From the IMG/VR virus record IMGVR_UViG_2778261375_000003: a stretch of 64,000 nt of DNA; one strand, 5' to 3'. The stretch comes from a virus. Lineage: Duplodnaviria > Heunggongvirae > Uroviricota > Caudoviricetes. Made by a program: the position numbers and the translations under genes. Each line of letters starts with the position of its first letter. Within the stretch, counting starts at the first letter, position 1. Below the pieces are notes generated by a model. That model was not told where the DNA came from and made no database searches. It worked only from the letters and a program-made list of their open reading frames with translations. This document shows positions 29,173-55,825 of the stretch, piece after piece.

Positions 29173-30318
29173 ATGGCACAGGGCTTGCCTGTATCAAACG
29201 TTGTTAATGTTGATGTGATCATGTCGCCGCGTGCAGCATCAGGGCGAAATTTTGGTGCATTACTCATTCTCGGCCCGTCCACAATCATTCCGGTAAGTGA
29301 GCGCATTCGTCGTTATTCTGCCGCGGAAGATATTGGAAAAGATTTTGGCGTGGAATCACCAGAATATAAGGCTGCGCAGGTGTTTTTCTCACAATCACCG
29401 AAACCTCAGGAGGTTTTTGTTGGTCGTTGGGTGAAAACGAAGGGAGACAGCGAACAGGCCACGACTGAGACGCTGGAGCAGGCTGTGAATGCCATGCTCG
29501 ATTATACTTCATGGTATGGGTTGGGGATTGCAGACGATGCAGATATTCCGGATGCAGACTGGCTGAAAGTGGCTGCGGCGATCGAATCCTCTTCTGTAAG
29601 CCGTATTCTGGCGATTACGACAAGCGATGAGAAATGCCTGCAGACTGCATCCAGCGATGATTTGGCATCAAAACTGAAAACCGCCGGATATTCACGCAGT
29701 TTTATTCAGTATTCATCGGGTAATAAATACGCTGCGTTATCTGCATTTGGCCGGGCATTCACGGTTAATTTCAATGGCAGTAATACCGCGATTACGCTCA
29801 AGTTTAAGCAGGAGCCGGGTGTCGGGTATGAAACACTGACAGTCAGTCAGGCATCGGCACTTGATGCAAAAAACTGCAATGTGTTCGTGTACTACCAGAA
29901 TGATACAGCTATCCTCCAGCAGGGAGTGATGGCTAACGGCGATTTCTTTGATGAACGCCACGGCCTGGACTGGTTACAGAATTATGTGCAGACCAACCTC
30001 TATAACCTGCTTTATACCAGCACCACGAAAGTTCCCCAGACTGAAGCCGGTATTACCCGACTGTTATCAAATGTTGAAAAATCACTGGATCAAGCCGTTC
30101 AGAATGGACTGATTGCTCCGGGCGTATGGAACGGGGGCGACCTTGGCCAGTTGTCATCAGGTGACACGCTGCCCAAAGGTTATTACGTATACGCCCAGCC
30201 GCTGGATGAACAGGCACAATCAGAACGTGAAGCCCGTAAGGCTCCGGTGATTCAGGCTGCAATAAAACTTGCAGGCGCGGTTCATTACGCTGACGTACAG
30301 ATTAACGTTGTTCGCTAA
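29173..30318 (+). CDS. Tail sheath protein (contractile tail)
   Basis: 381 aa immediately upstream of tube, chaperone and tape measure genes. Confidence 0.6.
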
Positions 30319-31402: not shown

Positions 31403-33388
31403 ATGAACGCCGAGACTATTAAAGATTTCCTCGTCTCGCTTGGCTTCAGTGTGGATGATGCAGGAGCGAAAAAGTTCGGTTCTGTCCTCGCCGGTACAAC
31501 TGCAAATGTCATCAAAATGGGGCTGGCCGTCGAAGGAGCTGCACTGTCCGTGGTGGCCTTCACGGCTAAGATCGCCTCCGGTCTGGATAATCTTTACTGG
31601 GCGTCACAGCGCACTGGCGCGACAGTCCAGGGAATTCAGTCTATTGGCTATGCGGTTTCGCAGGTTGGCGGCAGTGTGGACGCTGCGCGATCTTCTCTGG
31701 AAAGCCTCTCCCGGTTTATTCGTAACAATCCCGGAGCAGAAGGCTTTCTGAATCGCCTGGGCGTACAGACCCGTGATGCCAGCGGCAACATGCGTGACAT
31801 GGCCGCTATTTTTACAGGTGTAGGCCAGAAGCTCAGCGGTATGCCGTATTACCGGGCTAACCAGTATGCGCAGATGCTGGGCATTGACGAAAATACCCTG
31901 ATGGCCATGCGTCGTGGTGTGGGGCAGTTCAGCGCTCAGTATTCAGAAATGGTGAAAGCGATCGGATTTAATGCCGATCAGGCTGCCTTATCGTCAAACC
32001 GGTTTATGACCTCGCTGAAATCGCTCGGTGAAATGGCCGGGATGGCGCGGGACAAAATCGGATCGAATCTTGCGGACGGACTGGCGGGGCAGATTGATAA
32101 CCTGCGCAAAAAGATAATTGAAAATTTTCCCAAAATTGAAGTCACCATCACAAAGGTCATAAAGGGGATCCTCTGGCTGGGTGAGATAGTCGGGCGGGTA
32201 GCATTTCGGATAGTCGATGGTGTCGGAGATATCATCGAGTGGTGGGGGAAACTGGATGCCGAAACGAAAACCCTGATAGAGGTTATCGGCGGTCTGGTTG
32301 TCGCCATGCGGATACTTAACTCTACTTTCTGGATGTCACCTATAGGGCTGATTACCGGTCTGATCGTGGCTCTCGGTCTCTTGTGGGAAGACTACAAAAC
32401 ATGGAAAGAAGGCGGTAACAGTCTTATCGACTGGGAAAAATGGCAACCGGCAATAGATAAAGCGAAGGATGCGATCACCTGGCTTCGTGACCACCTTCTG
32501 GAACTAAAAGATGGTGTTGGCGGCTGGCAAAATGCACTGGAAATCCTTGGTACATTCATCGCGGGTGTCTGGGTATCCAGGGTTCTGGGGGCTTTCGGGA
32601 AAATATCAGGTTTGCCGGTCCCGCCGTGGTTAAAAGGCTGGATGGCTTATGCTGCGTATTTGTACTCTGATCGCGAAAATATTGGTGCCAGTGCGAAGTC
32701 ATCCTGGGATTACACGAAACAAAATATTGGAGATTCATTGCGCTGGCTTGGCATTGATACCGATTTTGGTCGTAATCCTCATACCGTAAAAGGCGCAAAT
32801 ATTCAGTCAGATATTCCAGGTGCTGAGCCGGAACAATATGCACAGGCTACGAAACGAGGAGAACGGAATAACAATCCGGGAAACCTTAATTTTGCTGGTC
32901 AGGCAGGGGCTTCTCTTGAACGCCCGGGCGGGCGATTTGCCAGATTTGAAACTGCCTTTGATGGATTACGGGCTCTTGCTCGTCAGTTAATGCTGTACGC
33001 CGGACGGGGAATAAACAGTGTGGAGAAAATTATCTCTACCTGGGCACCTGCGTCTGATAATAACAACACAACAGCGTATATCAGGGCTGTATCGCAACGA
33101 CTGGGAGTGGATCCCCGGGCTGCCCTGAATATGAGCGATCCGCAAACCATGTCAGCATTGATGAGCAGCATTATCCAGCATGAGAATGGAAGAAATATCT
33201 ATTCTCGAGAGCTGATTAATAAGGCTGCCGTGGCGGGAATTAGTGGCAAAGTGACAGAGGTTAACCAGCAAAATACCTACCACATTTACGGTGGCGGAGA
33301 TCCGCACGCTGTCGGTAATGAGGTTGCACGTCGGCAACAGTCTGCAAATGCTCAGGTCATGCGAAGTAATCAGGTGAGGGTGGGTTAG
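31403..33388 (+). CDS. Tail tape measure protein
   Basis: 661 aa, helical with central hydrophobic segment, after the chaperone. Confidence 0.75.
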   Translation: MNAETIKDFLVSLGFSVDDAGAKKFGSVLAGTTANVIKMGLAVEGAALSVVAFTAKIASGLDNLYWASQRTGATVQGIQSIGYAVSQVGGSVDAARSSLESLSRFIRNNPGAEGFLNRLGVQTRDASGNMRDMAAIFTGVGQKLSGMPYYRANQYAQMLGIDENTLMAMRRGVGQFSAQYSEMVKAIGFNADQAALSSNRFMTSLKSLGEMAGMARDKIGSNLADGLAGQIDNLRKKIIENFPKIEVTITKVIKGILWLGEIVGRVAFRIVDGVGDIIEWWGKLDAETKTLIEVIGGLVVAMRILNSTFWMSPIGLITGLIVALGLLWEDYKTWKEGGNSLIDWEKWQPAIDKAKDAITWLRDHLLELKDGVGGWQNALEILGTFIAGVWVSRVLGAFGKISGLPVPPWLKGWMAYAAYLYSDRENIGASAKSSWDYTKQNIGDSLRWLGIDTDFGRNPHTVKGANIQSDIPGAEPEQYAQATKRGERNNNPGNLNFAGQAGASLERPGGRFARFETAFDGLRALARQLMLYAGRGINSVEKIISTWAPASDNNNTTAYIRAVSQRLGVDPRAALNMSDPQTMSALMSSIIQHENGRNIYSRELINKAAVAGISGKVTEVNQQNTYHIYGGGDPHAVGNEVARRQQSANAQVMRSNQVRVG

Positions 33389-40055: not shown

Positions 40056-40828
40056 TGGCGAAAAATGACTTTAAAGCGTTTGCAACGGATCGAAATGCCA
40101 ATGTTATATCGCAGGAGGAATGGGAAGCGTTGCCCGCGCTTTTATCCGGATTTACAGCAGGGAAAGCCTCCAGTGCGCAAGTCAATAAGGTTATTCGGCA
40201 GGCCAGCTTTATTGCTGCAGCTCTGGCCCAGTTTGTAAGTGATAAAACGCAACGGGATGTGCTTGATAATGGTGATCTGCCCGGTTTTGTTGAATTGCTG
40301 GGATCGGGGTTTGCTGTTGAATACCTGAGCCGCAAGAATCCGTTTGGTGATATCAAATCGGATGGCACGGTGAAAACGGCTCTCGAAAACCTTGGTTTGG
40401 GAGAAGGTTCGGCATTACCCGTTGGTGTGCCTGTCCCGTGGCCTTCCGCCACTCCGCCAACAGGCTGGCTAAAATGCAATGGTGCGGCTTTTTCTGCTGA
40501 AGAATACCCGGAACTGGCAAAGGTTTATCCGACAAATAAATTGCCTGATTTACGCGGTGAATTTATTCGTGGATGGGATGATGGGCGTGGGGTGGATTCC
40601 TCTCGTGGTTTGTTGACATCTCAAGACCATTTATTTGCTTCTCATGGGCACTGGTTTGACAAGTACTATGCGCTAACAGGTTTTGATACAACGGGAGGTC
40701 GGTTCGTAGTTACGGCTGATGCTTTCGGGGAACTTATTAAGGCAAATTCAATTTCTACGGTATCGGTTGGTGGTTCTGAAACCCGGCCGCGCAACGTCGC
40801 ATTTAACTATATCGTGAGGGCAGCCTGA
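40055..40828 (+). CDS. Tail fiber protein (short, Stf-like C-terminus)
   Basis: C-terminus ...[10 protein letters not shown]...[12 protein letters not shown]...[11 protein letters not shown] parallels recalled lambda Stf C-terminus; ATGA overlap with previous gene. Confidence 0.7.
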
Positions 40829-41863: not shown

Positions 41864-43798
41864 TTAACAGCCTAACGCTAAAAATGAAGCGCCGAGGCCA
41901 GGAGTACTGGCTCTGGATATAAATTTAACCGGGTCGGGACTAAAACCTGCACAGGCAATATAACCAACAGCCCCGCTATCTGGTGTGTAGTCTTGTGAGA
42001 CCAAAACACGCAGACATCTGTTTGGAAATGCAATCGGGAAATGGGTTACTACATCCTGTGCAATGCCTGGTGCGCCGATTGAGCCCCACTGAAGAATAAA
42101 ACCTGATGGTAATTTTTGATATCCAGTACCTGAAACAGAAAGCGTGAAGCTACCCATATCAGGTATCTGATTCGCCCCTGTCCCTACATTCCTTTTAGCC
42201 GCTTCTCCCAAACCAAGGTATTGGATAACGGCCAGTGTGCTTGTTTTAGCCAGAATATCGCGACCGACTGACGTTAAATCAGTCTGAGCTACCGTATCCT
42301 TACCAGTGAAATAAGGCAGTTTGTTTGCACCAGTCGCAAGGGCAGCGAGAGCGGTTAAAGTTGCATCCAGAGGCTGTTTGCCTGCCAGCGCATTTGTCAT
42401 TGTTGTCGCAAAGTTCGGGTCATTGCCAAGTGCTGCGGCAAGCTCATTCAGGGTATCAAGAGCTTCTGGTGATGAACCAACCAATGCGGATATGGCAGCT
42501 CTTACATAAGCGGTCGTAGCAATCTGCGTGTTATTCGTACCCTGTGCAGCGGTAGGCGCAGTAGGGACACCCGTTAATGCAGGGCTTGCCAAAGGCGCTT
42601 TGAGAGCCAAGGCATTGTTGATAGTTGTGCTGTAATTCGGGTCGTTATTGATCGCAGCAGCTATTTCTTTAAGCGTATCCAGTGTGCCAGGCGCACCGTT
42701 GATAAGTGCAGTTATAGCTGCCTTAACAAAGGCTGTATTTGCGATCTGCGTGTTATTCGTACCCTGTGCAGCGGTAGGCGCAGTAGGTATTCCCGTTAAT
42801 GCAGGACTTGCTAAAGGAGCTTTAAGAGCCAGAGCATTGTTGATAGTTGTGCTGAAATTCGGGTCGTTATTGATCGCAGCAGCTATTTCTTTAAGCGTAT
42901 CCAGTGTGCCAGGTGCACCGTTGATAAGTGCCGTTATAGCTGCCTTAACAAAGGCTGTATTTGCGATCTGCGTGCTATTTGTACCTTGCGCTGCCGTCGG
43001 CGCGGTTGGCGTTCCTGTCAGACTCGGGCTTTCTATTGGCGCTTTGGTATCAGCCAGATCTTTTATAGACTTAACAGCTTTAGGGGTAGCCGCCATTGTT
43101 TCGCTGTCGCTGTTAGTTGCGCTACTGAGCTGAACTAATCCCTTTTGCGTTGTGCTTGCATCCTGTGCCGTATACTTGCTTTTCGCCAGATCGTAGGCTT
43201 TTTTAACTGCCAGCGAACTTGCAGCAACATCACTTCTGGTACTGGTTACAGAGTCTGAAATATCAATGCCGATCGAGCGGTTGATACGCTCGGATGTATC
43301 AATCATCTCCTGGGTAATGGCAGATACACTAGCAGGGATATTCACCGTACAAACAAGCAGCTCCCCATCTCCTAACTGATATGAATCGGTATAGGTTCTG
43401 GCAACAAATTCAGCCGCATGAATATGTGACGCGGTATTCACCTGGTAGGTATCTTCTCCAAGGAGGTATCTTCCCTTCAGCACAATTGCATATTTCTTGC
43501 CTGCACTAAGTGCAAGAGAAATATCCTTACGTTGCTGAATAGTTACCTGGTAAAATTCACCAATATCCACCGACGCCGCGCCTGCGGTTTTATCACCATC
43601 CACTGAGGTAATTAACAGGTTCATCCCACCGCCAGGCTTAGGTAAGAAACCGGCATAAAATCCCGGGTCAACAATCCCCCTGAATTTTCGGTTTAGCGCG
43701 GCTGACAGATATGGTTCGTGGTATTGCACATCGGCCACCAGAGCCAACGACTCGGATGATGGGTAAGTAACCGATGTAACAACTGTAACGTCATTCAT
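41864..43798 (-). CDS. Side tail fiber protein (Stf-like) with internal tandem repeats
   Basis: Start set at MNDVTVVTS; contains ...[25 protein letters not shown]... and ...[35 protein letters not shown]... blocks shared with lambda Stf / P2 H as recalled. Confidence 0.8.
42540..43030. repeat. Tandem coding repeats (about 222-bp unit) within tail fiber gene
   Basis: Near-identical DNA at 42641-42660 and 42863-42882 and surrounding; encode repeated [57 protein letters not shown] units. Confidence 0.75.
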
Positions 43799-43809
43799 CA
43801 AGCATATCC

Positions 43810-44244
43810 TTATGCTGTAGTCGTGTTTATGGCCATAACTGCGGTATATGTTTTGCCCACATACAGCGAGTCTTCCTGGACACAAATAATGGCGATTGGC
43901 TTGTTCTCGTTATCCAGAACAACCAGAGTGTTGAATGGGTAGTTTTTCCCTTCCTGCAACTGGCTTTGATCAAGGTCCATTCGGACAGTAATTATCCCGC
44001 CTGAGTAGGTTGGGACGAGGTTGATGGTGCAAAATTGACTGGTCAGTTCTGCCAGTTCGAAAGCCTTTGGCAGTTCTCCAATCTCATAAGTGCCATCTCC
44101 TTTCTTAGTAACCAGCGAACTGGTACCGAAAACGGCCTTGCTGATTAAAAATCGAGAGCCTTTGTTAATGGACGATTCAGCGCGCCGCTGATAGTAATAG
44201 TCCAACAACTGACTCTTATAGAGGTTTGTTGAGACGTCAGACAT
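43810..44244 (-). CDS. Tail/baseplate-associated hypothetical protein
   Basis: 144 aa immediately upstream of minus-strand tail fiber. Confidence 0.45.
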
Positions 44245-44322
44245 GATTTTCCCTAATCAATGTTGTGAAGCCTCATTGTAAGATAAGTAACTTGTCACCC
44301 CGCCCTGCGGACGGGGTGATTA

Positions 44323-45162
44323 TCAGGCATCACTATCCAGCAGCAAATCATCTGCGCGGGTGCGATCAAACGTAGGCGTTGCTTTCACAATAGTGCCGCC
44401 CGGCGTTGCAGTGATCGGAGCGCTAATCGACGTAACTCCAGTAAGCGAAGTTGTATCCGAAGTTTCAAACCAGCAGTACGCTTTTTCGGTATCAGAAATC
44501 TCGTTCAAAGTGATCATGTCGGCGTGTTCATTTACAACAACCGACAAATAGAGCGTAAGCCCATCAAACACTATATGCAGTGGCAGTAGAGGCTTTACGA
44601 ACTGATTAAACTTTCTGAGAATTTCTTCTGTAATTGCGGACTGATCTATCGTGCCAGTAATCCCCATTGTCCGGGCCAGGTCGTTTATGGGAATACTGAT
44701 CATCCCTCTGGAAGTCAGAAACATCTCGCCGAATGTGCCGCCGGTAGTCTCCAGTGTGCTTTCAGGTATTAGAACCGTGCCATAGGGATGACGCTCAAGG
44801 TCCACCGGTGCATATATCGGATCCCATAAAACAGAAATACCGTTAAATTCGCGGTAAATTGTCTGGTTTATAGGGCGTTCAGTCCCCTTAAAGTGAATCT
44901 CATCAAGACGCTGTTGTAACAACATCGGAACGGAAGATGAGTTCGACGTTCTGATAGTAAAGAACTGGCCAAGTTCATTTGTCCTGGTCTCCAGATCCTC
45001 CTTGCTCATGGAAAAAATAGACTTCCGGTTGGTAATTCGCTCCAACCATGGGTCAACAAAGGTATCCATCATTGACTGAACCAAATCAGCCAATGATTTA
45101 TAGAGCAATGACTTTTGCTTAGCTGATGTAAGCCGGTTATTAAACCAGGAACGCTGCATCAC
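44323..45162 (-). CDS. Baseplate protein (gpI-like position)
   Basis: 279 aa between J-like gene and fiber region on minus strand. Confidence 0.45.
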   Translation of the reverse strand: MMQRSWFNNRLTSAKQKSLLYKSLADLVQSMMDTFVDPWLERITNRKSIFSMSKEDLETRTNELGQFFTIRTSNSSSVPMLLQQRLDEIHFKGTERPINQTIYREFNGISVLWDPIYAPVDLERHPYGTVLIPESTLETTGGTFGEMFLTSRGMISIPINDLARTMGITGTIDQSAITEEILRKFNQFVKPLLPLHIVFDGLTLYLSVVVNEHADMITLNEISDTEKAYCWFETSDTTSLTGVTSISAPITATPGGTIVKATPTFDRTRADDLLLDSDA

Positions 45163-46592
45163 TCCTCCTCATACGAAATATTAAAGGTGGAGTTTTCTGT
45201 ATCCAGATAAACGAAATCGTAAAAGCCGTTGGACTCATTCCACTCGACAAATTCCAGATAAAAGTCGCGGAAATAACCCAGCGTTTCGATAAATGCCCAA
45301 ACGTCTTTTTTCTTGATTAGGATGTACTTGCCAACACGGTTCGGATCAAAGAAAGTTGAGTCACGCCCAAATTTTGTTTCCAGTGCCGACTTCAGCTCAT
45401 CAGTCACGTTCTCAATGGTCAGGCTTGCCGATATCCGCCCGGTGATGGTGATCTTAAAGGGTAGTTTTCTGACCTCTTTATACGAGAATTTCTTGTTCAA
45501 CTCATTCGGCACCTTCTTAAAGGCAGCCAGGATCATTTCTTCAAGCTCTGACTGGCTTTTGTTTGGATGCCATCCTGAAATAAATATCTTATTGATATTC
45601 CGAACATTATAAGCACCATCTAATTTCTCTTGCTGGCCTTCGCCCCATGCCTTTACCCAGGACAGTCCCGGGATGTTACGCACCAGAAAATACGTATAGT
45701 CCCCGCCCCATACGACCTGATCATCATAGGCAAGGTAATATTGTGCACGATTACGTGTGATCTCCGTTGTTTCGGCATCGGTACCTGCGGTTATGGGTGT
45801 CATTGTCTTAACTGAAATCAAATTAGCTAAATTAGCCGCAGAATCGACAGGCGTCAGATTTTGGCCAGCAACCAAGGTTATATCTCCGTTGGTGCACCAT
45901 ACCTTAAGTGTAATGGTCGAGCCTTCTGGCGGTATTTGCCCAATTAGCCCATCACCGAATCGAACCCCCAACTGCTCGGATGGTTTATAAAACTCAACGT
46001 AGACCTGGCTTTTACTACCAGCTAACCGGAACATAGTGCTGGAAGACCACTGCGTGGTCTTACCATCGGTCGTCACGAATACTTCCAGCTTATAGCAGAC
46101 AGCAGTGAGAGCCTTTGATAACACGACTTCCAGAAATTCTTTGGCTGCCGTAACGGTATATGTCACCTCCTGGATTTCCAACTGTGCCACTTCTACCGTA
46201 CCGGTGCCGTCAACCAACCTGCATACATCCATAGTTATGTAAGGGTACTGGTCGTCAGATATTAAAGGCATGTTTTTGGGGATTACCGCTGGAGCATCTT
46301 CACTTGTGGCGGTGATCTCAATCATCCCCGATGACGGTGTTGGCTTGGTACCAACGTAACTATTCGTTTCTGCCGCTGCCAGGATAGAGGAACGCCGCGT
46401 CGCGGTCGATATAAAGCCTTCAGCCAGCGCCGCATCGGCATACTGAAAGCACCTGTAGACAATCTGGGTAATAAACAATGTCAGCATCGAGACAAATTGA
46501 GAGCCGACAAACTTCGACCAGAATGAATCTTTCTCGACAAGCTCTTCAAACTCTGCACGAATACTGTCTTTAGTCGGTGTTGTTTTACTCAT
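45159..46592 (-). CDS. Baseplate J-like protein
   Basis: 477 aa in canonical position of minus-strand tail module. Confidence 0.55.
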   Translation of the reverse strand: MSKTTPTKDSIRAEFEELVEKDSFWSKFVGSQFVSMLTLFITQIVYRCFQYADAALAEGFISTATRRSSILAAAETNSYVGTKPTPSSGMIEITATSEDAPAVIPKNMPLISDDQYPYITMDVCRLVDGTGTVEVAQLEIQEVTYTVTAAKEFLEVVLSKALTAVCYKLEVFVTTDGKTTQWSSSTMFRLAGSKSQVYVEFYKPSEQLGVRFGDGLIGQIPPEGSTITLKVWCTNGDITLVAGQNLTPVDSAANLANLISVKTMTPITAGTDAETTEITRNRAQYYLAYDDQVVWGGDYTYFLVRNIPGLSWVKAWGEGQQEKLDGAYNVRNINKIFISGWHPNKSQSELEEMILAAFKKVPNELNKKFSYKEVRKLPFKITITGRISASLTIENVTDELKSALETKFGRDSTFFDPNRVGKYILIKKKDVWAFIETLGYFRDFYLEFVEWNESNGFYDFVYLDTENSTFNISYEEE

Positions 46593-46948
46593 AGCACCAC
46601 GTCCTGTGTGATAGTTATATCCCTGATACGAATGGATATTTTCAACTTATCAAAAGCATCTCCCTCGGCTACTGACAAGCCAGAAATCGGTATGTCAGGT
46701 AAATCTACCGTCAGTTTTTGCAACAGCATTGCCTCAACCGCAATTTGAACATGCGACAAGTTGGTCGGTTCGTGTTTAAACTGCGGTAAAACATTGCCCC
46801 ATGACGGATCCCCGTATACCTCACCCTGATAAGTGTTTAGCCACTCATATAAACGAGCGCCCCAGGCCTCCTCCTGGGACTCATACGTTTTTACGCCGGA
46901 TAACTCCAGCGTCAGCAAAGGATCAATTTCGTTATTGTTGGCCATCAA
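46589..46948 (-). CDS. Baseplate wedge protein (gpW/gp25-like)
   Basis: 119 aa, coupled between tape-measure-like gene and J-like gene. Confidence 0.5.
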   Translation of the reverse strand: MMANNNEIDPLLTLELSGVKTYESQEEAWGARLYEWLNTYQGEVYGDPSWGNVLPQFKHEPTNLSHVQIAVEAMLLQKLTVDLPDIPISGLSVAEGDAFDKLKISIRIRDITITQDVVL

Positions 46949-49900
46949 TCAACTCTCGCGTAGTCATTCATCAACGGATCATCAATTGACAGTGGTACCG
47001 TGCGCATAACGCCCGGCTGAGGCGTGCTGACCTTTACGACAGTTCCCTGGCCTTTCGCCGAGTCTTTGGTGTGCTCTTCAATCCTGGCAAGCAATGAGGC
47101 CATCTGCGCAAACAGCCGCTTCGTTTCACCATCAAGTGAAACGGTATTATCAGCCAACTGCATTGTCGGCTTGGCACCGGAGCCGCCAAGGTCACTAATA
47201 ACCTGTCCGTCTATCTGCATACGACCGGTTGGTTGCTGCAAATCGTTGGCGGCAGTCGTCACCTTGGACGTGGAGGCTGGTTCAGGCGCATTATTTTTCC
47301 GCATCCCCGGCGAGTTGCGGAGTTTATCGAATAGTCCATCAATCTCCATTTGTGCGCCGAGTTGGTCAAAGTAACTTGAGTTGTTGGCCACCGGACGCGC
47401 CTCTTCAACTGGCATCGGAGTATCAACATACACATTGCCAGCTGCTGTTGCGGTCCCCTTCCCTCGTGCACGTTCTTCGAGCGTTCCCTGAACGACTTCC
47501 CGACGCATACCCCGGCCATTCATGAATTTGTTGACCAGATCGTTAACGCCAACAGCATTGCCGATTTTGTCTACCAGACCGCCTTTCTCAAACGGGCTAT
47601 CACCAGGGGTAAATGCCAGGCCAGTAGACTGATCGATAACAGCGTTATCAGGCAGTGGTCCCCTCACTCCATATTGCGCCCCACCCTGTGCTCCTGCTCC
47701 AGGTGTATAGATTTCACCACCTAAATAGCGAGCACGATGAGTATTGACCTTGATCGCGTACTCACGGTTTTCTTTGGATAAGTCACCTGTGCCTTTTTTC
47801 CACTTATTGATAGTGCCAAACCCAGCGTTATATGCAGTGATGGCCTCGTTTAAGTCTCCATTGGCTTGCTTCAGATACTTGCTCATGAGAAGAGCCGCAG
47901 CTTCTGCCGATTTCACAGGATCAAACGATTCACCTTCAGCTAAGCCAGTCTCTTCACGAGCAATCCCCGTGAACTGAAACATTCCCAGAGCACCGGTTTG
48001 GGATTTTGCATACGGATTACCACCAGATTCAGTTGCAGCAATCGCGTAAAGAGTGCCTTCTGGAAGACCGTATTTATTCTCTAGTTCGGCAAAATACGGA
48101 GCCAACTTATCGAGATTTGCCTTACCTTCAGCGCCAAGACTTCCGACTTTTACATCTAAGTTGCCATTGTTGTAAGTATCCGCAGCTTTCTGAATGTCAT
48201 TCCTGGTGCCAGTAGTATTAAGCGACGATGATGATGAGCTATTTTGACCAATAGCATTATCAATTTTCTGCAACGCGCTATTGCCCGTTTCTACGGCATT
48301 TGCATTGATAATCTGATTGGCAGTTTCTTTAACTGTTTTATTGCTATCTTTCGCCGTATCTAGGGATGCATTTACAACACGAGTGACAATATTAGCCTTT
48401 TTAGGGGTATATTCAGTCTTAGGAGCATTGTCCTCCTGACTTTCTTTAGCTGGTGTTTTTAATTCAGGTGTAACCTCTTTCGCATCCGCTTTGTTGACTA
48501 GCTTTGATGCAACCCAGGCCACAGGGGTGCTCTGAACAGCGGCATCTGCAACCTCACCTGAAAGCTCTTTTGCGGCACTCCATAGATTACTGCCAGCTTC
48601 TTTAATGTATTTCCCTGGGTTCTTAATGAAATCAATTGCACTATCAATTGCATCACTGAAAACCTGTTTCAGGTTATCGACAGTAAAGAAGTTTTTGATG
48701 GCGTCTAATTTTTCGTTCAGGTTCTTTGTTGTGTCACTGAACCATGCTGAAATAGCATCACCAATCTTTGCAGTATAATCACTAAATGTCGTGGATATAG
48801 TATCACCAAGGTTAGAAATATATGTTTCTAAATTGGTAATCCCACTATCAATGGCCTGGGCAATACTTTCCGTCGAAAATGATTGCAACATATTGCCGAT
48901 ATCCTCAAATCCAAGTGATTTGAGAACGCCGCCAATGGCACTGCTAATACCAGATACCAGTCCTCCCATATCGAGAACGTTAGCCAGTGTATAAGCCGCT
49001 TTTTGCTGAAAAGATGGATCTTCCCCATCCTTAAGCCCAAAGGTCCGACGTTGTGCTTCTGTATCATTCCAACCGGTTACCGCATCATAGATACCTCCAG
49101 CCACCGTGCCGACTAGCGGAATTGCGCGTAAAGCCCCCTTTGCAAGAGCCTTAACACCTAGTTTCCCCAATCCCTTAGTTGCAAGTTTTCCGGCACCGCG
49201 AGTAGCCAATTCGCCAGCTTCTTTGGCAGCAGCTTTTTTCCCACCAAAGCCCAATAAGCTTGCAACTTTTTTTATACCTAAAGCGCCTAGTGCCATCGAG
49301 CCAACTTTCTTTAGTACCCCACGGCCAAAAATAAGGGAAGCAATACCACCGGCCCCCTTCCCTAACAGGCTAAATAGTTTGGACAGCAAGCCGCCCTTCT
49401 TTTTCCCGGTGTTTTTGGCTATCTGATCAAGGGCGCTGAGAATCTTGTCATTGCCCTCTTTAATTTCGCTGGTCTGCTCCTGAAGTTCCTGAACCGTCCG
49501 TTTTTGGGTGTTAACCTGAACGACATCGGCACTATTTTGCGATTTACGCCTAAAAAAACCTTTTCTACGGCTGTTATCGTCATTGCCACGAATCACATCG
49601 GCAATAGACTTTCTGGCACCATTAAGCGATCCACCAACTTCTTTTGATATCCCGCCAAGCTCCTTCCCTGCTGCCCACAATGGACCAGCAACGGCATAAC
49701 CTAACGCATCGACGGCACGAGTCTCTGAAGGGTTACCTATGCCTTCAGCTACTTTTGACAGTTTTTTTAATAAACCTGATTCAGCATTTAGACGCTCATC
49801 ATCCTCTTTGCGCCTGGCCTTTTCAGCACGTTCAGCACGGGCATCTTCCGCTGCGGCCTTACTCCCTGACTTTCCAATAAAACGACCACGCGCATCGCGT

Positions 49901-50640
49901 TGGTTTTGGCTTTTTTGCGCACCGCCTTTTTGATCGAACATTTTGCGAGCGTGTTCGGCTGCTTCGGTCCGTTGTGCCTTTATATCCTCTGGTATAGCCT
50001 TCCTGCGTCGTTTTTTACCCTTTGGTGTAGTTGATTTGGCCTGCTGTTCCTGTTGAGCAATGCCCTCCTGAACTACACGAGAAACGTCCCCTAAATTAAG
50101 CCGTTTCATTGCATCAACAATAGGGTCTACTGATGGCGCATTGGCCACAAAGTCTGGCCGGGAATTTTCGATTGTTCGATTTAATGCCGACACACTGCGA
50201 GATACTGGGTCAACCGTTGCAACGCGTTCCCCTTTCAAATCACGATCGAGTTTGACCGTTTCTAACCGCTGTGCTTTAACATCCTCTGTTATTGCCTCTC
50301 TTCGTCTATTTGGGGGATTGTGCGCTGTTGGTGCAGCCTGCTGTTCACGGTTAGTGACTTTGTCCTCCCGTATACGAGAAACGTCCCCTAAATTAAGCCG
50401 TTTCATTGCGTCAACAATAGAGTCCACTGATGGCGCATTGGTCACAAAGTCAGGACGTGAATTTTCGATTGTGCGATTTAATGCCGACACACTGCGAGAG
50501 ACAGGATCAACAGTTGCAACTCGTTCCCCTTTCAAATCTTCAACAGCTTCCCGAATACCTGCAAGCTCTTCCAGCTCTTTCGCGCTGGCGGTTTCAACTG
50601 TCCTTATAACATCGTCAATATTGGCGTTTTTTCTTTCCAT
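46945..50640 (-). CDS. Tape-measure-like protein with lytic transglycosylase (SLT) domain
   Basis: 1231 aa; SLT-like block ...AIAATESGGNPYAKSQTGALGMFQF...AYNAG...; Gly/Ala-rich helical stretches; two copies of an N-terminal repeat of about 55 aa. Confidence 0.6.
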   Translation of the reverse strand: MERKNANIDDVIRTVETASAKELEELAGIREAVEDLKGERVATVDPVSRSVSALNRTIENSRPDFVTNAPSVDSIVDAMKRLNLGDVSRIREDKVTNREQQAAPTAHNPPNRRREAITEDVKAQRLETVKLDRDLKGERVATVDPVSRSVSALNRTIENSRPDFVANAPSVDPIVDAMKRLNLGDVSRVVQEGIAQQEQQAKSTTPKGKKRRRKAIPEDIKAQRTEAAEHARKMFDQKGGAQKSQNQRDARGRFIGKSGSKAAAEDARAERAEKARRKEDDERLNAESGLLKKLSKVAEGIGNPSETRAVDALGYAVAGPLWAAGKELGGISKEVGGSLNGARKSIADVIRGNDDNSRRKGFFRRKSQNSADVVQVNTQKRTVQELQEQTSEIKEGNDKILSALDQIAKNTGKKKGGLLSKLFSLLGKGAGGIASLIFGRGVLKKVGSMALGALGIKKVASLLGFGGKKAAAKEAGELATRGAGKLATKGLGKLGVKALAKGALRAIPLVGTVAGGIYDAVTGWNDTEAQRRTFGLKDGEDPSFQQKAAYTLANVLDMGGLVSGISSAIGGVLKSLGFEDIGNMLQSFSTESIAQAIDSGITNLETYISNLGDTISTTFSDYTAKIGDAISAWFSDTTKNLNEKLDAIKNFFTVDNLKQVFSDAIDSAIDFIKNPGKYIKEAGSNLWSAAKELSGEVADAAVQSTPVAWVASKLVNKADAKEVTPELKTPAKESQEDNAPKTEYTPKKANIVTRVVNASLDTAKDSNKTVKETANQIINANAVETGNSALQKIDNAIGQNSSSSSSLNTTGTRNDIQKAADTYNNGNLDVKVGSLGAEGKANLDKLAPYFAELENKYGLPEGTLYAIAATESGGNPYAKSQTGALGMFQFTGIAREETGLAEGESFDPVKSAEAAALLMSKYLKQANGDLNEAITAYNAGFGTINKWKKGTGDLSKENREYAIKVNTHRARYLGGEIYTPGAGAQGGAQYGVRGPLPDNAVIDQSTGLAFTPGDSPFEKGGLVDKIGNAVGVNDLVNKFMNGRGMRREVVQGTLEERARGKGTATAAGNVYVDTPMPVEEARPVANNSSYFDQLGAQMEIDGLFDKLRNSPGMRKNNAPEPASTSKVTTAANDLQQPTGRMQIDGQVISDLGGSGAKPTMQLADNTVSLDGETKRLFAQMASLLARIEEHTKDSAKGQGTVVKVSTPQPGVMRTVPLSIDDPLMNDYARVD

Positions 50641-50721
50641 GATCTTATCGCCTACCGTTTCGGTTTAAGTTTTTCTTCCAGTTTCTCCAACAGGAAAAAC
50701 GCATAGGATTCAGTAAGCCTT

Positions 50722-51603
50722 TCAGCGTCCTGAATCGGTATACCCCCATACAAAACCAGGTTGGACACTAAGGTCTGATAGCTTTTCAATCCCCACCTGT
50801 GGAATGAAGTCGGTAGCCCGAAAGGGCACCCACAGACGGGTATATGCACCCTCTGTGGACTCCTTTTTATCCTGATTTGGGCATTTATGCGGCGGGAGAC
50901 GAAGACGCATTTCACCTTTATCGATGTAGCACGGTAAACCATGTTCGAGCTTTTCATGAGCCAGTCGGATGTGTGCCGCCAGCTTCATAAATTCAGTATC
51001 AATGGCCATCCGTTTAATCGTTTCATAACGACGCTCAGCCTGATCTTCACGAGTACCGCTAACATCGTTATAAAGCTCACACTGATAAGCGAATTCCCAA
51101 AAACGCAAATCAACGATCGCTTCTTTGAATTCCGCGTCGTCTTCAGGTGGCAATGCTGCACGGCGCATCTCCAGCATTTCCATTGCCCAACCATCAAGCG
51201 GCACGATACGCCATTGATAAGGTACTCCCTCTACAGACACCTCAATATCGTCAATGAAAGGTTCCACTTCCAGGACCTGGATATCTTCAGCCAGAGCATT
51301 CATATCGCAATCGTAATAATGCTCTTTACCGCAATGTTTACAGGTGTAGGTGAATGTCTCGACCGGTGTTTCACGGGAGCCGGTAAATATCCACCATAAC
51401 GCGGTAATCCGGTCCTGCGCCGTCCATGTCAGGGGATCATGTTTCGCGGGTTCAGCAAGCAAGGCTTTTAAATACGCCGTTGTCTGTTGTTCTTGTTCCT
51501 CCGGTGTTATCGAGTTGAAACGCATCGCATCAGCAATATTTGGCTGACGGAACTGGATCAATTCAGTTGGCCGCGATGGTAGCGGGAAAAGAGGTAAAAG
51601 CAT
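50722..51603 (-). CDS. Phage tail-associated hypothetical protein (possible chaperone)
   Basis: 293 aa directly upstream of tape-measure-like gene. Confidence 0.4.
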   Translation of the reverse strand: MLLPLFPLPSRPTELIQFRQPNIADAMRFNSITPEEQEQQTTAYLKALLAEPAKHDPLTWTAQDRITALWWIFTGSRETPVETFTYTCKHCGKEHYYDCDMNALAEDIQVLEVEPFIDDIEVSVEGVPYQWRIVPLDGWAMEMLEMRRAALPPEDDAEFKEAIVDLRFWEFAYQCELYNDVSGTREDQAERRYETIKRMAIDTEFMKLAAHIRLAHEKLEHGLPCYIDKGEMRLRLPPHKCPNQDKKESTEGAYTRLWVPFRATDFIPQVGIEKLSDLSVQPGFVWGYTDSGR

Positions 51604-51617
51604 CCTTGCTCCTTAAT

Positions 51618-52229
51618 TCAAAGAGAAAAGCTAAAGCCCAGAAGGGAAGCCAAAGAACTTGAGGATTGGTTAAACGTGCTGTGCAATGCGAAGGTCATTG
51701 GGAATGACTTAAATTCAGTAACCTGATCTCGCGCATAGGTGACATCGCCGGTAGTGACCGGGAATACCGTCATCTCATTTTCCAGTTTGGTTAAGCCGGA
51801 AGACAGCAACCGATAAATACGCACATTGAGCAAATATTTAGACGGTATATTCCCGGTACCGTCCGGATTGATCACCCGACTTTTTGCCGTCTTAAACCAG
51901 TCCAAAACGAGGCCATCAACGGTATCCCTGACCATCATTGTTATCTGCCCAGGCGAACGCTCCGTTGGTTGAAGGATATTCCCTCCGCCGATTTTAATCG
52001 TTTCATATTCGATGCTGTAATCGTGGTAGGTAATGTCTTTGGCAAAGAAGTCTGCCCCCTCCAGTCCATCAACTTCGACAGAGAACTGCCATCCTTGCGC
52101 GAACAGCATTTTGTTCATGATGATTGACGTCAGCTTACCAACTTCCCGCTCACCAACGCCGGAGCCAAATAATGTCGTCGTTAATGCCGAAGATACATAA
52201 GACTTTACTGAAGCAACATTAAGCCCCAT
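51618..52229 (-). CDS. Phage structural hypothetical protein (possible tube)
   Basis: 203 aa in minus-strand tail module. Confidence 0.35.
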   Translation of the reverse strand: MGLNVASVKSYVSSALTTTLFGSGVGEREVGKLTSIIMNKMLFAQGWQFSVEVDGLEGADFFAKDITYHDYSIEYETIKIGGGNILQPTERSPGQITMMVRDTVDGLVLDWFKTAKSRVINPDGTGNIPSKYLLNVRIYRLLSSGLTKLENEMTVFPVTTGDVTYARDQVTEFKSFPMTFALHSTFNQSSSSLASLLGFSFSL

Positions 52230-52239
52230 ATCAGCCCCC

Positions 52240-52830
<591 letters not shown>

Positions 52831-52886
52831 TTAACAGATTCTACGAGTTGTCATTTGTGACAGTATGCTCGCAATCGTAGTGATTA

Positions 52887-53426
52887 CTACCACCAACTGC
52901 TAGCTTTCTTCTCTCTAGCTTTTCCTTCGCTTTGCAGTAAATCTTTACTTCCTGTAGAAATATTTCTATTTGCATCAGCCTCAGACTGAATTACATCTGT
53001 CTTAGCTGCTCTCTCCTTCAACTCCTGCTCTATAAAATCGTTTTCTCGCTGGACACGAGCCGCTTTTGCTTGCAGTTCGAGCTTCATGCTTTCGAGTTGC
53101 AGCTTGCGAAGCTCATCCTCATAAGCTTGATCTCGCTTCTTGTCATTTGCTAGCTCGGCTTCTCGTTTCGCTCTACGTTCATTTTCTGCAGCAACACGCT
53201 GTTTTTCGCGTGCAGCAGCGGCAGATGCTGCTTTTTCTCTTCTAATACGTTCAGCTTGTGCTTGTTGGCGAATAAGTTCTTTTCTGGCATCCTCAGCTTG
53301 CTGCTCTTTAGCTCGCCCTTCATTTTCCGCTTGAGCAATAGCAGCAATTTGACTTTGCAACGAGTTAGCCAAGGCAGTGCCTACACTAAACGTAGAAAAG
53401 ATTAGAAATAAAATAATTTTATTCAT
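52887..53426 (-). CDS. Secreted coiled-coil protein (Lys/Glu/Ala/Arg-rich)
   Basis: Signal peptide MNKIILFLIFSTFSVGTALA then long charged helical region; AT-rich codon usage. Confidence 0.55.
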   Translation of the reverse strand: MNKIILFLIFSTFSVGTALANSLQSQIAAIAQAENEGRAKEQQAEDARKELIRQQAQAERIRREKAASAAAAREKQRVAAENERRAKREAELANDKKRDQAYEDELRKLQLESMKLELQAKAARVQRENDFIEQELKERAAKTDVIQSEADANRNISTGSKDLLQSEGKAREKKASSWW

Positions 53427-53429
53427 AAA

Positions 53430-53951
53430 TTATTTCTTTTCTGGACAAGTAGCATTTGGCTGAATTCGAGTTTCATTATCTTTAGTTGAAATAAGCACAG
53501 CAAGCCCCGTTGTAAACTGGCATGCTTTACCAACTTGAGTTGAAGTGAACACCTTAGTTCCTTCTTTATAAGTCAGTGAAACACCTTCAACAATTGTTTT
53601 ATCACTAACCAAAGAACCAGCCGCTGCACCAAGAGCCGCACCACCAGTACCGCCAGCTACAGCACCCAGTGTCGATGTGCCTTTAACATTATAACCGGCA
53701 ACGCCCCCAGCAACAGCTCCCAGTACCGCACCAAATGTCTGTGCCGCTTCTTTATTAGCTTTATTATCAACTTTCACTTTAGCTGGAAGCACAGAGATAA
53801 TATTGACTGTCTTTGTTTCCTGCTTCGAATTCAATTGAGCGGTATCATAAACATCGGCAGCATAATCAGCACCGCTAGATTGACACCCAGAAAGAAGAAT
53901 TGCAGATACAACAAGAGCGCATAAAGTATACTTTTTAGACATAAGAATCAT
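53430..53951 (-). CDS. Lipoprotein with glycine-zipper domain (SlyB-like)
   Basis: Lipobox LLSGC; GAVLGAVAGGVAGYNV...GAVAGGTGGAALGAAAGS; start may be 53951 or 53942. Confidence 0.6.
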   Translation of the reverse strand: MILMSKKYTLCALVVSAILLSGCQSSGADYAADVYDTAQLNSKQETKTVNIISVLPAKVKVDNKANKEAAQTFGAVLGAVAGGVAGYNVKGTSTLGAVAGGTGGAALGAAAGSLVSDKTIVEGVSLTYKEGTKVFTSTQVGKACQFTTGLAVLISTKDNETRIQPNATCPEKK

Positions 53952-54563
53952 CCCAGAAAAACAAAAACCGGCGAGAAGTTACCACGAGAACGGAAAGTAA
54001 ACAAGAATACTCCCATTGACTTATATCAATTAATCAACTTTTTATAAGCTATCCCTAACTTATTGTGTATAGCTGAAAAGTCAGAGACAAGTTCACCATC
54101 TGCATTATTTCTTAAGTTAATAGTTTATTGCTAACTTAATTTATGTATCGACTATTGATATCCATCTTAAAGTTACAATATCCCTCTGCATTATTTTTCA
54201 TCACAAATAATATATCTATTGCACTACACTCACCTGCTCTAATAAATTTGTATTTTTAAGTCACAAATGCTATCTTTTCGCATCATATTGACCTTTTAAT
54301 CGTTCAGGCTTATAGTTCCGCCGTCGTAGCAAATTCTGCGACCGGGTTTAGCAGCCTGAATGATTGTGCGGACAGCCGCAGATATCCGATATTGCGGTAT
54401 TTTTGTGTCCGTAAAACCGTGTTACGCCCAAATTATGGTGGGGCGTGATGGGGAGGCTTCGGCCTGCTGGTTTCACAATCGCCAGTCTGCTAACCCCGTC
54501 ACGTCCTGCCACCTGTTTAGCAGCGGGTAGCAGGTTGTTAAACCTGATTGTGAGGCCGTAACT

Positions 54564-54785
54564 ATGGTTAATGCCAATCCTTGCGCACGCCAAGAATTCA
54601 TCTGGCGTTTCTATTCCTGTAAAAAACACCACTATCACTTCGTCATCGCAGCAACAGAAGACGAAGCACGCTCTCAATTGCCTGATGGCCCCTGCATTTT
54701 TACTGCCCGTTTTTCAACTAACTCGCGCAATTCACTTAGTTACTGGAACCTCCCCTTCTCTGCCGACGTTCAGGGGGATTTATGA
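54564..54785 (+). CDS. Icd-like small protein (putative cell division inhibitor family)
   Basis: 73 aa; EFIWRFYS...HFVIAATEDEARSQL...TARF fits remembered Icd-like pattern; gagg RBS; ATGA-coupled to antirepressor. Confidence 0.4.
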   Translation: MVNANPCARQEFIWRFYSCKKHHYHFVIAATEDEARSQLPDGPCIFTARFSTNSRNSLSYWNLPFSADVQGDL

Positions 54786-55825
54786 AAAAACCTCTCGTCA
54801 CCCGTAATGAAATAGCCGAAGCGATCGCCCTGCATACAACCTGTATGCCGACACGGGAGATCCCCGGCGCAATTGCCAACTATTTCATGATAACCAGACG
54901 TTTTTATACCCGAACAGATAAGGCTGTGATCAACAAGCTACTGATAGCCGAGATCAGGGATTATTTGATTGAACAAGGACGTCTACGTTACGCAACAGTG
55001 GCAGCAGAAATGAGAAAGGAGGCGCGCAGAATGACCGGTAATAATTTGAATGTTGAAAAACCAGCACCTGTTGCTTCAGCTACGCCATCACCAGCTGTGA
55101 ATGTTATCTCCAACACTGGAGACACAATCGACAGCCAGACACTGTTAAAGATGGTCAATGAAGCTCGTAAGTTATGTGGGGAACCAGAGGTTCGGAACAA
55201 CAAATTCATCGAAAAAATACTCGACGAATTAGAAGGTGAGGACGGTTACACAAAAAGTGCAACCGTGCCGCCAGGTGGCGGTACGCCTATGGTTGTCATA
55301 ACCATGACCTACAAACAAGCCCTGCGAGTCGCCGCACGCGAATCAAAAGCCGTCCGCCGTTCGCTGATCGACAAACTGGAAGAATTGCAGCAGGCAAACT
55401 CCCCTGCCCCATCGATCCCCCAAACATTACCAGAAGCTCTACGCCTGGCTGCCGAGTTGGCAGAACAGAAAATGCAGCTGGAACAACAGCTGGTGGCCGC
55501 CGCTCCTAAAGTCGATTTTGCCGACCGGGTATCAGTGGCTAATGGAATCCTGATCGGGAACTTTGCAAAGGTCGTTGGACTTAAGCAAAACGCCCTTTTC
55601 TCATGGTTGCGCCAGAACGGCATTCTCATGGCTTTTGGTGCGCGCAAAAACGTACCGCGCCAACAGTACATCAACGCCGGGTATTTCACGGTGAAAGAAG
55701 TGGTGCTGGATGATGAAAATGGCTACCAGATACGGCTGACGCCCCAATTAACGGGTAAAGGCCAGCAGTGGTTAACTCGCAAGCTACTTGATGCTGGTTT
55801 GTTAAAACCAGTAGCAATAGGTTAA
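54782..55825 (+). CDS. Phage antirepressor with KilA-C/ANT C-terminal domain
   Basis: C-terminal 130 aa (LPEALRLAAELAEQK...GYFTVKEVV...TGKGQQWL) match the ANT/KilA-C pattern and are paralogous to next gene. Confidence 0.7.
   Translation: MKKPLVTRNEIAEAIALHTTCMPTREIPGAIANYFMITRRFYTRTDKAVINKLLIAEIRDYLIEQGRLRYATVAAEMRKEARRMTGNNLNVEKPAPVASATPSPAVNVISNTGDTIDSQTLLKMVNEARKLCGEPEVRNNKFIEKILDELEGEDGYTKSATVPPGGGTPMVVITMTYKQALRVAARESKAVRRSLIDKLEELQQANSPAPSIPQTLPEALRLAAELAEQKMQLEQQLVAAAPKVDFADRVSVANGILIGNFAKVVGLKQNALFSWLRQNGILMAFGARKNVPRQQYINAGYFTVKEVVLDDENGYQIRLTPQLTGKGQQWLTRKLLDAGLLKPVAIG

Follow-up and report, generated by a model that had tools for sequence, protein, structure and literature searches.

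Does the very large protein encoded at 46945-50640 of the window (the whole 64,000-nt stretch of tailed-phage DNA analyzed here) act as a tape measure for the phage tail, and does the duplication near its N-terminus bear on the length of that tail? A sequence-only reading of the locus had proposed a 1231-aa tape-measure-like protein at this position, and the ORF was confirmed, on the minus strand with an ATG start. PHROG 2533 matched it with E=0 over profile positions 35-1130 of 1130, and at the nucleotide level the gene was 100% identical over its whole length to sit of phage phi456 (OR339795, WNL49372) and 91.6% identical to P1 sit over 91% of the gene, with an amino acid identity to P1 Sit of ~90% in a six-sequence Sit alignment. 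The identical 1231-aa protein occurs on 70 public contigs under the NCBI/UniRef name "Sit." Judged by its sequence, the ORF represents the sit gene of a Punavirus, a P1-like phage.

The gene order around sit, as read from neighboring PHROGs and from the phi456 and P1 annotations, is that of P1: pmgC-tub-pmgB-sit-pmgA-bplA-16-R-S. The phi456 flanks are 99.8% identical to the window from 42203 to 55177, whereas the S tail-fiber gene and everything to the left of 42203 differ between the two. The genes and the promoter are as follows.

52838..52856, minus strand: LPsit-like late promoter, with a -22 box AAATGACAA and a -10 element TAGAAT, one mismatch to the annotated P1 LPsit
52240-52806, minus strand: pmgC (adaptor), with tub the first genes of the sit operon; PHROGs 1842 and 1851 cover the two
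51618-52229, minus strand: tub (tube initiator)
50722..51603, minus strand: pmgB, directly upstream of sit; PHROG 1854 and phi456 annotation
46945..50640, minus strand: sit, 1231-aa tape-measure protein/structural injection transglycosylase of a P1-like phage; ORF with ATG start, PHROG 2533, identity to phi456 and P1
46589-46948, minus strand: pmgA, downstream baseplate gene whose start overlaps the sit stop; PHROG match and P1/phi456 synteny
45159-46592, minus strand: bplA, downstream baseplate gene, same evidence
44323-45162, minus strand: gene 16, downstream baseplate gene, same evidence
43810-44244, minus strand: R, downstream baseplate gene, same evidence

The annotated P1 LPsit reads aaatgactactcgtagaat, from which the window motif differs at one position. 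The roles of tube initiator (tub) and adaptor (pmgC) were assigned in P1 (PMC12810830), and PmgB has been proposed as a tape-measure chaperone in that phage (PMC9024508). The window also holds an inverted repeat of invertase-type sites; the Mu gix site sequence had no match anywhere in the window. At the invertase site, in the stretch 40.3-42.3 kb, two phages appear joined, which may reflect either a genuine fusion or a chimeric assembly.

The tape-measure and transglycosylase roles of P1 Sit are already published, and the gene itself is not new. GenBank (NC_005856) annotates P1 Sit as "structural injection transglycosylase; putative tail ruler," and Gonzales et al. 2022, who detected the protein by LC-MS/MS of virions, gave it the role of tape measure protein (TMP; PMC9024508). 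A 2026 cryo-EM paper on P1 likewise names Sit the TMP and reports low-resolution density in the baseplate center; Sit is unresolved in the maps, and the authors place it in the tail lumen and the baseplate center (PMC12810830). Virion location and TMP assignment come from the literature, and they bear out the tape-measure-like character proposed for the window protein. The long tail that had been implied is also found in P1, where ~53 rings with a rise of 39 Å give ~207-210 nm. At 1.5 Å per residue, the 1140 aa of P1 Sit would span 171 nm, and the observed tail corresponds to 1.8 Å per residue; this agrees in order of magnitude, but a plain helical-ruler calculation does not reproduce P1 precisely.

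Within the tail module, sit is the largest gene and lies between the tube and chaperone genes and the baseplate genes. Searches against curated tape-measure models in Pfam (such as PhageMin_Tail) and NCBIfam returned no TMP match to Sit, only SLT-type families, and the PHROG families over the non-SLT part are labeled "unknown function." A TMP role is compatible with this result, since the class is defined by function and spans many families that are unrelated to one another; the role rests on size, position, predicted helicity, presence in the virion and the lack of another candidate. An AlphaFold2 (AF2) model of aa 1-350 was nearly all helix, with three helices per repeat unit, at low confidence (mean pLDDT 56.6). 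The features found within sit are listed below.

50539..50640, minus strand: N-terminal 34 aa, invariant (columns 1-34 identical in all six aligned Sit sequences and the same in L011, L012 and pEC2_5)
50242..50538, minus strand: repeat unit 1, the extra "type-1" unit, aa 35-133, from a repeat search; in the alignment, single-unit alleles lack precisely these residues
50374-50538 and 50242-50373, minus strand: 55-aa head and diverged 44-aa tail of unit 1
49945..50241, minus strand: repeat unit 2 (canonical), aa 134-232, from repeat search and alignment; found in every Sit
50077-50241 and 49945-50076, minus strand: 55-aa head and basic tail with KGKKRRRK of unit 2
48907..49395, minus strand: region rich in Gly/Ala and Lys, with segments of weak hydrophobicity, aa ~416-578, from hydropathy and composition
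47767..48096, minus strand: SLT (GH23 lytic transglycosylase) domain, aa 849-958, Pfam PF01464
48028-48030, minus strand: codon of catalytic Glu871, from alignment to MltC and T7 gp16

The embedded SLT-like block had been offered for checking by domain annotation, and the HMM search recovered Pfam PF01464 at aa 849-958, scoring 94.3 bits where the cutoff is 21.3 (E=4.8e-27). The segments AATE871SGG, GALGMFQF and TAYNAGFG align with the ES, GxxQ and AYNxG motifs of MltC and T7 gp16, so that the catalytic motifs are intact, and E871 and S872 are unchanged in all six aligned Sit sequences. Enzymatic activity of this putative lytic transglycosylase is predicted. P1 would require the Sit transglycosylase because its gp5 spike is without a lysozyme domain (PMC9024508).

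Compared with P1 Sit (gp37, NC_005856, YP_006507), the window protein shares the operon position, the SLT domain and the invariant N- and C-termini, but it has two 99-aa units in 1231 aa where P1 Sit has one in 1140 aa. It also differs in its SJ46-type mid-region and in being without the 10-aa insertion TLTRSPNGKL that follows directly upon the catalytic ES motif of P1 Sit. Mosaicism between alleles is greatest in the region at aa ~416-578, with its P1-type and SJ46-type blocks.

Two N-terminal repeat copies of roughly 55 aa had been described, visible as duplicated DNA near 50.1-50.6 kb. The duplication is there, with 50030-50241 and 50327-50538 sharing 84% identity over 212 nt, but the size of the unit had to be revised: the start-to-start spacing is exactly 297 nt, which therefore marks an in-frame tandem duplication of 99 aa, of which the 55 aa are only the conserved head. 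The 297-nt repeat escaped Tandem Repeats Finder, the second halves of the copies being too diverged, and came to light in a separate repeat search. The heads of the two units are identical at 53 of 55 aa (92% of nucleotides), whereas the 44-aa tails, gap-free and in register, retain 61% nucleotide identity. Copy against copy, the heads gave dS 0.32 and dN 0.017 (dN/dS 0.05), and both copies have therefore been kept as protein under purifying selection; for the tails, dN/dS was 0.47 with dS about 1, near saturation. The difference in dS between tails and heads suggests either that the heads have undergone gene conversion or that the tail is of foreign origin. In the type-1 tail the basic patch is mostly gone, with NPPNRRRE where the canonical tail has KGKKRRRK. 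Each unit holds 6 prolines together with a basic linker that is probably disordered, and AF2 confidence was lowest in the repeat region, with pLDDT <50 at aa 89-118, 126-144 and 199-213. A search of the 99-aa unit against 1.84 billion representative proteins returned only 5 matches, and the unit appears to be confined to Sit proteins. All were Sit fragments or variants except one spurious hit, to a surface-repeat protein of Gram-positive origin (P0004), which was rejected as a chance match at 26% identity.

Repeat copy number had been proposed for comparison among relatives, and it varies: alleles with one, two or three 99-aa units were found, together with a head-only variant of +55 aa. The Sit proteins of P1, P7, SJ46 and JL22 have a single unit, with the type-1 unit absent. 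A query spanning the copy1/copy2 junction matched 199 genomes, 198 of which cover the junction while 1 matches the head half only; at least two units are thus present in 198 of the 470 complete E. coli genomes carrying sit (~42%). Three units were found in at least six records, among them pEC2_5 with an intact 1340-aa ORF, and no allele with four or more was seen among the 60 best matches to a three-unit query. In the 1187-aa allele only the head is duplicated (+55 aa), whereas the 1132-aa allele matches the query at 99-100% identity over the 89% that aligns and has a chimeric head, the mark of a recombinational collapse to one unit. All length variants are in frame and keep whole modules (+55, +99 and +198 aa). 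A scan of species-representative genomes yielded 4 loci, each of them incomplete or with just one unit.

A donor lineage with a lone type-1 unit, as a source by unequal crossing-over, was not found among the 199 genomes matched by the junction query, and every single-unit allele seen has the canonical tail; the extra unit could have come from an unsampled lineage. Phage phi456, whose sit is identical to that of the window, makes plaques and myovirus particles (PMC10967188), and the two-unit allele is therefore functional. A literature search found no paper describing polymorphism in the number of sit units, and this variation (one, two or three) in natural P1-like phages would be the only new point here.

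Taken together, these results favor a reading of Sit as a tape measure and SLT protein with an expandable N-terminal array of 99-aa units, to which we give a probability of roughly 0.8. Late transcription would start from LPsit and run through the operon pmgC-tub-pmgB-sit-pmgA-bplA-16. The long N-terminal two-thirds of Sit, probably mostly helical, would lie inside the tail tube and determine its length as the tape measure, and the C-terminal third with the GH23/SLT domain would be delivered at the baseplate hub and cut peptidoglycan locally during injection. The array sits right after the invariant 34-aa N-terminus, with two units in the window and one in P1, and unequal homologous recombination between heads would account for the gain and loss of units. 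Under the ruler rule, every additional unit would lengthen a tail of roughly 210 nm by ~15-18 nm, or about four tube/sheath rings. We infer that unit copy number probably changes tail length; whether the allelic series (one unit, +55 aa, two, three) sets discrete classes of roughly 52, 56 and 60 tube rings, with unequal recombination turning one class into another, is a proposal that we regard as evenly poised.

In-frame duplications and deletions in lambda gpH and T4 gp29 change tail length proportionally, and mycobacteriophage tape measure proteins evolve by tandem unit duplication and loss. The model of these rulers is applied here to a 99-aa unit that differs in adjoining the N-terminus and in being private to the Sit family. 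Tape measure proteins with muralytic domains are known from T5 (Pb2) and mycobacteriophage TM4 (Tmp; both cited in PMC9024508). As is proposed for Sit, these two and the gp41 TMP of solved structure (PDB 9b45) combine a long helical ruler with a peptidoglycan-degrading motif delivered at the tail tip, and gp41 gave a weak sequence match to the SLT region of Sit (E=1e-4); they are, however, siphovirus rulers without sequence relation to Sit beyond the SLT, whereas Sit belongs to a contractile tail.

Placed only 34 aa from the N-terminus, and with its prolines and probably disordered linker, the array may not act as a rigid ruler. Sit might be a tape measure whose array lies outside the measuring segment (flexible, in the neck/terminator region, or cleaved), and unit number would then be a nearly neutral polymorphism with no effect on tail length. 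The prolines, the predicted non-helical basic linker and the low model confidence there fit such an arrangement, as do the fast evolution of the unit tails and the finding that one-, two- and three-unit alleles are common together on near-identical backgrounds, as weak selection predicts; but the strong purifying selection on the 55-aa heads of both copies, the restriction of variants to whole in-frame modules and the proportional lengthening of lambda and T4 tails by in-frame duplications speak against it, and we consider it possible but unlikely. Doubtful to a greater degree is a unit that acts as a binding module and tunes stoichiometry, its head binding the putative chaperone PmgB, the tail terminator (gp24) or the stopper (gp7) and its KGKKRRRK tail the DNA end. 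The conserved head, the highly basic patch of the canonical tail, the position of pmgB directly upstream and the confinement of the unit to the Sit family, with no credible outside relative, are consistent with this idea, which is also compatible with a simultaneous ruler role, yet type-1 units have lost most of that patch.

The SLT of Sit is homologous to that of T7 gp16 (PDB 6yt5, 7eyb), with the same catalytic motifs, which raises the question of whether Sit is an ejected internal or core protein of that type rather than a tape measure. PHROG 342, "internal virion protein with endolysin domain," matches with E=7e-20, the JL22 and MH422554 records speak of "internal (core) protein" and "protein inside capsid D," and no TMP model matched. 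The similarity to gp16 is limited to the SLT domain, however, and in gp16 that domain is N-terminal; gp16 resides in the capsid core until its ejection, when it forms a trans-envelope channel, and neither a ruler nor a tail operon is involved. By contrast, sit lies between tube and baseplate genes in a tail operon, P1 has no other protein long enough for a ruler (gp6 being the hub; PMC9024508), and the cryo-EM placement is in the tail (PMC12810830), so that a core protein is improbable. An artifact of sequencing or assembly, for which only the general risk with tandem repeats can be cited, was rejected: the two copies show 22% nucleotide divergence, the junction recurs in 198 genomes that were finished independently, and the exact protein recurs on the 70 contigs.

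For a tape measure and SLT protein with an expandable array, polymorphism in unit number beside an invariant N-terminus offers a simple means to test the ruler model in P1. Such a test is timely, since Sit is unresolved by cryo-EM and its length departs from the 1.5-Å-per-residue rule for a tail of roughly 210 nm. For annotation, Sit proteins with 1132, 1187, 1231 or about 1330-1340 aa should be read as genuine alleles and not as errors. If unit number does set tail length, the resulting classes would amount to a natural test of how the ruler works in a phage with a contractile tail, and they may represent an adaptation to the thickness of the envelope or capsule.

The window encodes a protein already known as Sit, the structural injection transglycosylase of P1, from the following gene and promoter:

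46945..50640, minus strand: sit ORF, 1231 aa, ATG start
52838-52856: LPsit, P1 late promoter, conserved with one mismatch

The gene is 100% identical to that annotated 'Sit' in Escherichia phage phi456 (Punavirus P1), 98.8% identical to that of vB_EcoM-673R5, and 91-95% identical to those of SJ46, JL22, RCS47, P1, and P7, and NCBI and UniRef list the identical 1231-aa protein as Sit, from 70 contigs. The P1 order of tail and baseplate genes is kept around it, with pmgC, tub, and pmgB upstream and pmgA, bplA, gene 16, R, and S downstream. In the P1 RefSeq record sit is annotated as 'putative structural injection transglycosylase; putative tail ruler'. The sequence-only reading, which proposed a tape-measure protein with an embedded transglycosylase, was thus correct and previously published: the protein is the orthologue of P1 Sit, it contains an SLT domain, and its assignment as a tape measure protein (TMP) is in the literature.

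The window as a whole is not a plain P1-like genome: its phi456 homology (99.8%) extends from 55177 down to exactly 42203, and the sit operon is intact despite this nearby junction. Left of the junction, the plus strand at ~18.5-41.7 kb belongs to a second temperate myovirus (97% to vB_EcoM-611R5, 80% to Salmonella phage SEN34), which is unrelated to the P1-like part, covers ~700-41700 overall, mainly on the plus strand, and includes:

735-1811: integrase
3399-6053: RecE-like exonuclease
29173-30318: sheath
31403-33388: TMP, 661 aa

Among PHROG families, 'endolysin' and 'tail injection transglycosylase' match the C-terminal part of this 661-aa TMP; a Pfam search gave no SLT domain for this protein. 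Two opposed tail-fibre-assembly genes are flanked by a 24-nt inverted repeat (40383-40406 / 42202-42225; 92% complementary, core AAACCAAGG), which resembles the crossover sites of Cin/Gin/Hin-type invertases, and the phi456-homology breakpoint falls on its second arm. Since phi456 homology begins at 42203 and homology to a SEN34/611R5-like chromosomal prophage stops at ~42216, the two myoviruses appear to be joined head-to-head via one invertible tail-fibre segment, and no invertase gene lies between them. None of the complete E. coli genomes spans the ~42203 junction, which either arose when an invertase fused two replicons through this shared segment or is an assembly chimera. The S tail-fibre ORF (41864-43885, minus strand) encodes 673 aa, compared with 818 aa in phi456 and a longer product in P1; the shared invertible segment supplies its variable C-terminal part, and ~220-nt internal repeats lie in its constant part. 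Between pmgC and the c4/ant immunity region (52887-53951, minus strand) are two ORFs of 179 and 173 aa, as in phi456, which fall in PHROG 1094 (unknown function) and PHROG 1277 ('DNA methyltransferase'), whereas this place in P1 is taken by simA, simB, and simC, the superimmunity genes.

The SLT block claimed for the protein was confirmed by a Pfam domain search, in which PF01464 (transglycosylase SLT) matched aa 849-958 with E=4.8e-27 and a score of 94.3 bits (gathering threshold 21.3). The domain aligns with the solved structures of E. coli MltC and the T7 gp16 transglycosylase domain; the catalytic Glu-Ser (AATE871SGG), GALGMFQF, and AYNAG motifs are all present, and E871 and S872 are invariant across an alignment of six Sit proteins (window, P1, P7, SJ46, JL22, and MH422554). 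Sit is accordingly a predicted lytic transglycosylase with intact catalytic motifs. Window Sit (47990-48030) lacks the 10 aa (TLTRSPNGKL) that are inserted directly after the catalytic Glu in P1 and MH422554, and in a 1124-aa database variant (P0002) the entire SLT cassette is swapped for a divergent one.

Sit was found in purified P1 virions by LC-MS/MS and assigned as the TMP, with its SLT domain recorded and PmgB proposed as its chaperone (Gonzales et al., 2022, PMC9024508). The lysozyme domain of T4 gp5 is absent from P1 gp5, so that the muralytic activity is probably supplied by Sit (PMC9024508). A 2026 cryo-EM study lists 'TMP (Sit)' among the central baseplate components of P1, where low-resolution density is present, with Sit itself not resolved (PMC12810830). 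Because tape-measure models in Pfam and NCBIfam gave no match to window Sit and the best PHROGs over its non-SLT part are of 'unknown function', the TMP assignment rests on indirect points, namely operon position, size, predicted helicity, a Gly/Ala/Lys-rich and weakly hydrophobic segment (aa ~416-578), and the published virion data.

The sole long direct repeat in sit (50030-50241 / 50327-50538; 84% identity over 212 nt, start-to-start spacing 297 nt) accounts for the duplicated DNA that had been noticed near 50.1-50.6 kb. At the protein level a 99-aa unit is duplicated in tandem and in frame: copy 1 covers aa 35-133 and copy 2 aa 134-232, and 71 of their 99 residues are identical without a gap. 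The repeat had been described as about 55 aa in two copies; the duplication is real, but 55 aa is only the conserved head of the unit (53/55 aa and 92% nt identity between copies), which is followed by a 44-aa basic, linker-like tail with 61% nt identity. Codon comparison of copy 1 with copy 2 gave:

Heads, codons 1-55: dS 0.32, dN 0.017, dN/dS 0.05
Tails, codons 56-99: dS about 1, dN 0.47, dN/dS 0.47

These values indicate that both heads are kept as protein and suggest either that the duplication is old or that the tail of the extra (type-1) unit is foreign and the heads have been homogenised. AF2 models aa 1-350 as nearly all helix, three helices per unit, with a mean pLDDT of only 56.6. 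No relatives of the unit outside Sit were found among 1.84 billion representative proteins searched.

Repeat number, for which a comparison among relatives had been suggested, varies between one, two, and three units, plus a head-only duplication. Exactly one unit is present in P1, P7, SJ46, JL22, and MH422554, whose gap relative to window Sit is precisely aa 35-133, with the first 34 aa invariant; two more divergent Escherichia alleles (L011 and L012) also have one each. The sit N-terminus occurs in 470 of 5426 complete E. coli genomes, chiefly on plasmids, and the copy 1/copy 2 junction (120-nt query) is covered in 198 of these 470, the same 198 being recovered independently by a three-unit query. 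At least six records (CP041960, CP130449, CP060935, CP060921, CP102677, and CP102674) contain three units spanning 1038 nt, and in pEC2_5 the ORF is intact at 1340 aa, its two type-1 units preceding the canonical one. PLSDB gave a comparable pattern, with Salmonella, Klebsiella, and Shigella plasmids in addition. Among the best 120 protein matches, 76 have two units (1231 aa) and 19 have one (1132 aa; 99-100% identity where aligned, which is 89% of the query). Every extra unit is of type-1, with the tail IREDKVTN...RLETVKL[DA]R, and the array invariably ends in a canonical unit, whose tail contains KGKKRRRK; a type-1 tail did not occur in any single-unit allele among those compared in complete E. 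coli genomes and the listed protein matches. The single head of one 1132-aa protein (P0102) has copy-1 markers and then a copy-2 marker, the pattern that would be expected from a head-head crossover collapsing two units into one, and the head-head-tail arrangement of a 1187-aa protein (P0101) points to an independent duplication of the 55-aa head alone.

The gene is mosaic, with a SJ46-type mid-region (48400-49400, aa ~430-760; ~87% nt identity to P1) between P1/P7-type flanks, and three-unit alleles occur on both P1-type and SJ46-type mid-region backgrounds. One 1009-aa database protein (P0001) starts with Sit N-terminal sequence, comprising the end of a type-1 unit, the canonical unit, and what follows up to ~aa 330, fused to unrelated C-terminal sequence, a chimeric ORF that probably reflects rearrangement or misassembly in some contig. 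In vB_EcoM-673R5, vB_EcoM-813R1, and pEC15-3, sit is cut into 4-5 short CDSs or marked frameshifted, probably through long-read homopolymer errors rather than as real pseudogenes.

The P1 tail has 53 sheath rings and 52 tube rings (PMC12810830), and a 2025 preprint gives an axial rise of ~39 Å and a length of ~2100 Å. At 1.5 Å per residue the 1140 aa of P1 Sit span 171 nm vs. ~207 nm for 53 rings of 39 Å (cryo-EM reports: 207-210 nm), so that Sit is short for a simple helical ruler, and this mismatch makes the ruler arithmetic of P1 approximate, at 1.8 Å per residue. The '120 nm' tail used by Gonzales et al. (2022) to argue that Sit fits (PMC9024508) conflicts with the cryo-EM figures. We propose an arrangement in which Sit, as placed in the literature, would lie in the lumen of the tube and reach the hub with its C-terminal part, tube growth probably stops at the end marked by the invariant first 34 aa, and the 99-aa units immediately after them would serve as spacer modules. 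With 1.5 Å per residue, a unit would lengthen the tail by 14.9 nm; with the empirical P1 value of 1.8 Å, by 18 nm. This amounts to about four 39-Å rings, so that roughly 52, 56, and 60 rings would be predicted for alleles of one, two, and three units. Two units in sit are compatible with infectivity, since phi456 has both and gives plaques as well as particles of the myovirus type (PMC10967188).

In the main competing explanation, the N-terminal array is flexible and takes no part in measuring, and its copy number would be nearly neutral. It is possible as well that the unit is a binding module for PmgB, the terminator, or the DNA end. Some database annotations imply that Sit is an internal core protein of the T7 gp16 type, but operon position and the cryo-EM assignment oppose this and make it unlikely. 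In the full-text literature searched, P1 structure papers came up but no description of variation in sit repeat number, which does not prove that none exists. The residual interest of this gene lies in the modular copy-number polymorphism of its N-terminal unit and the predicted effect of that polymorphism on tail length.
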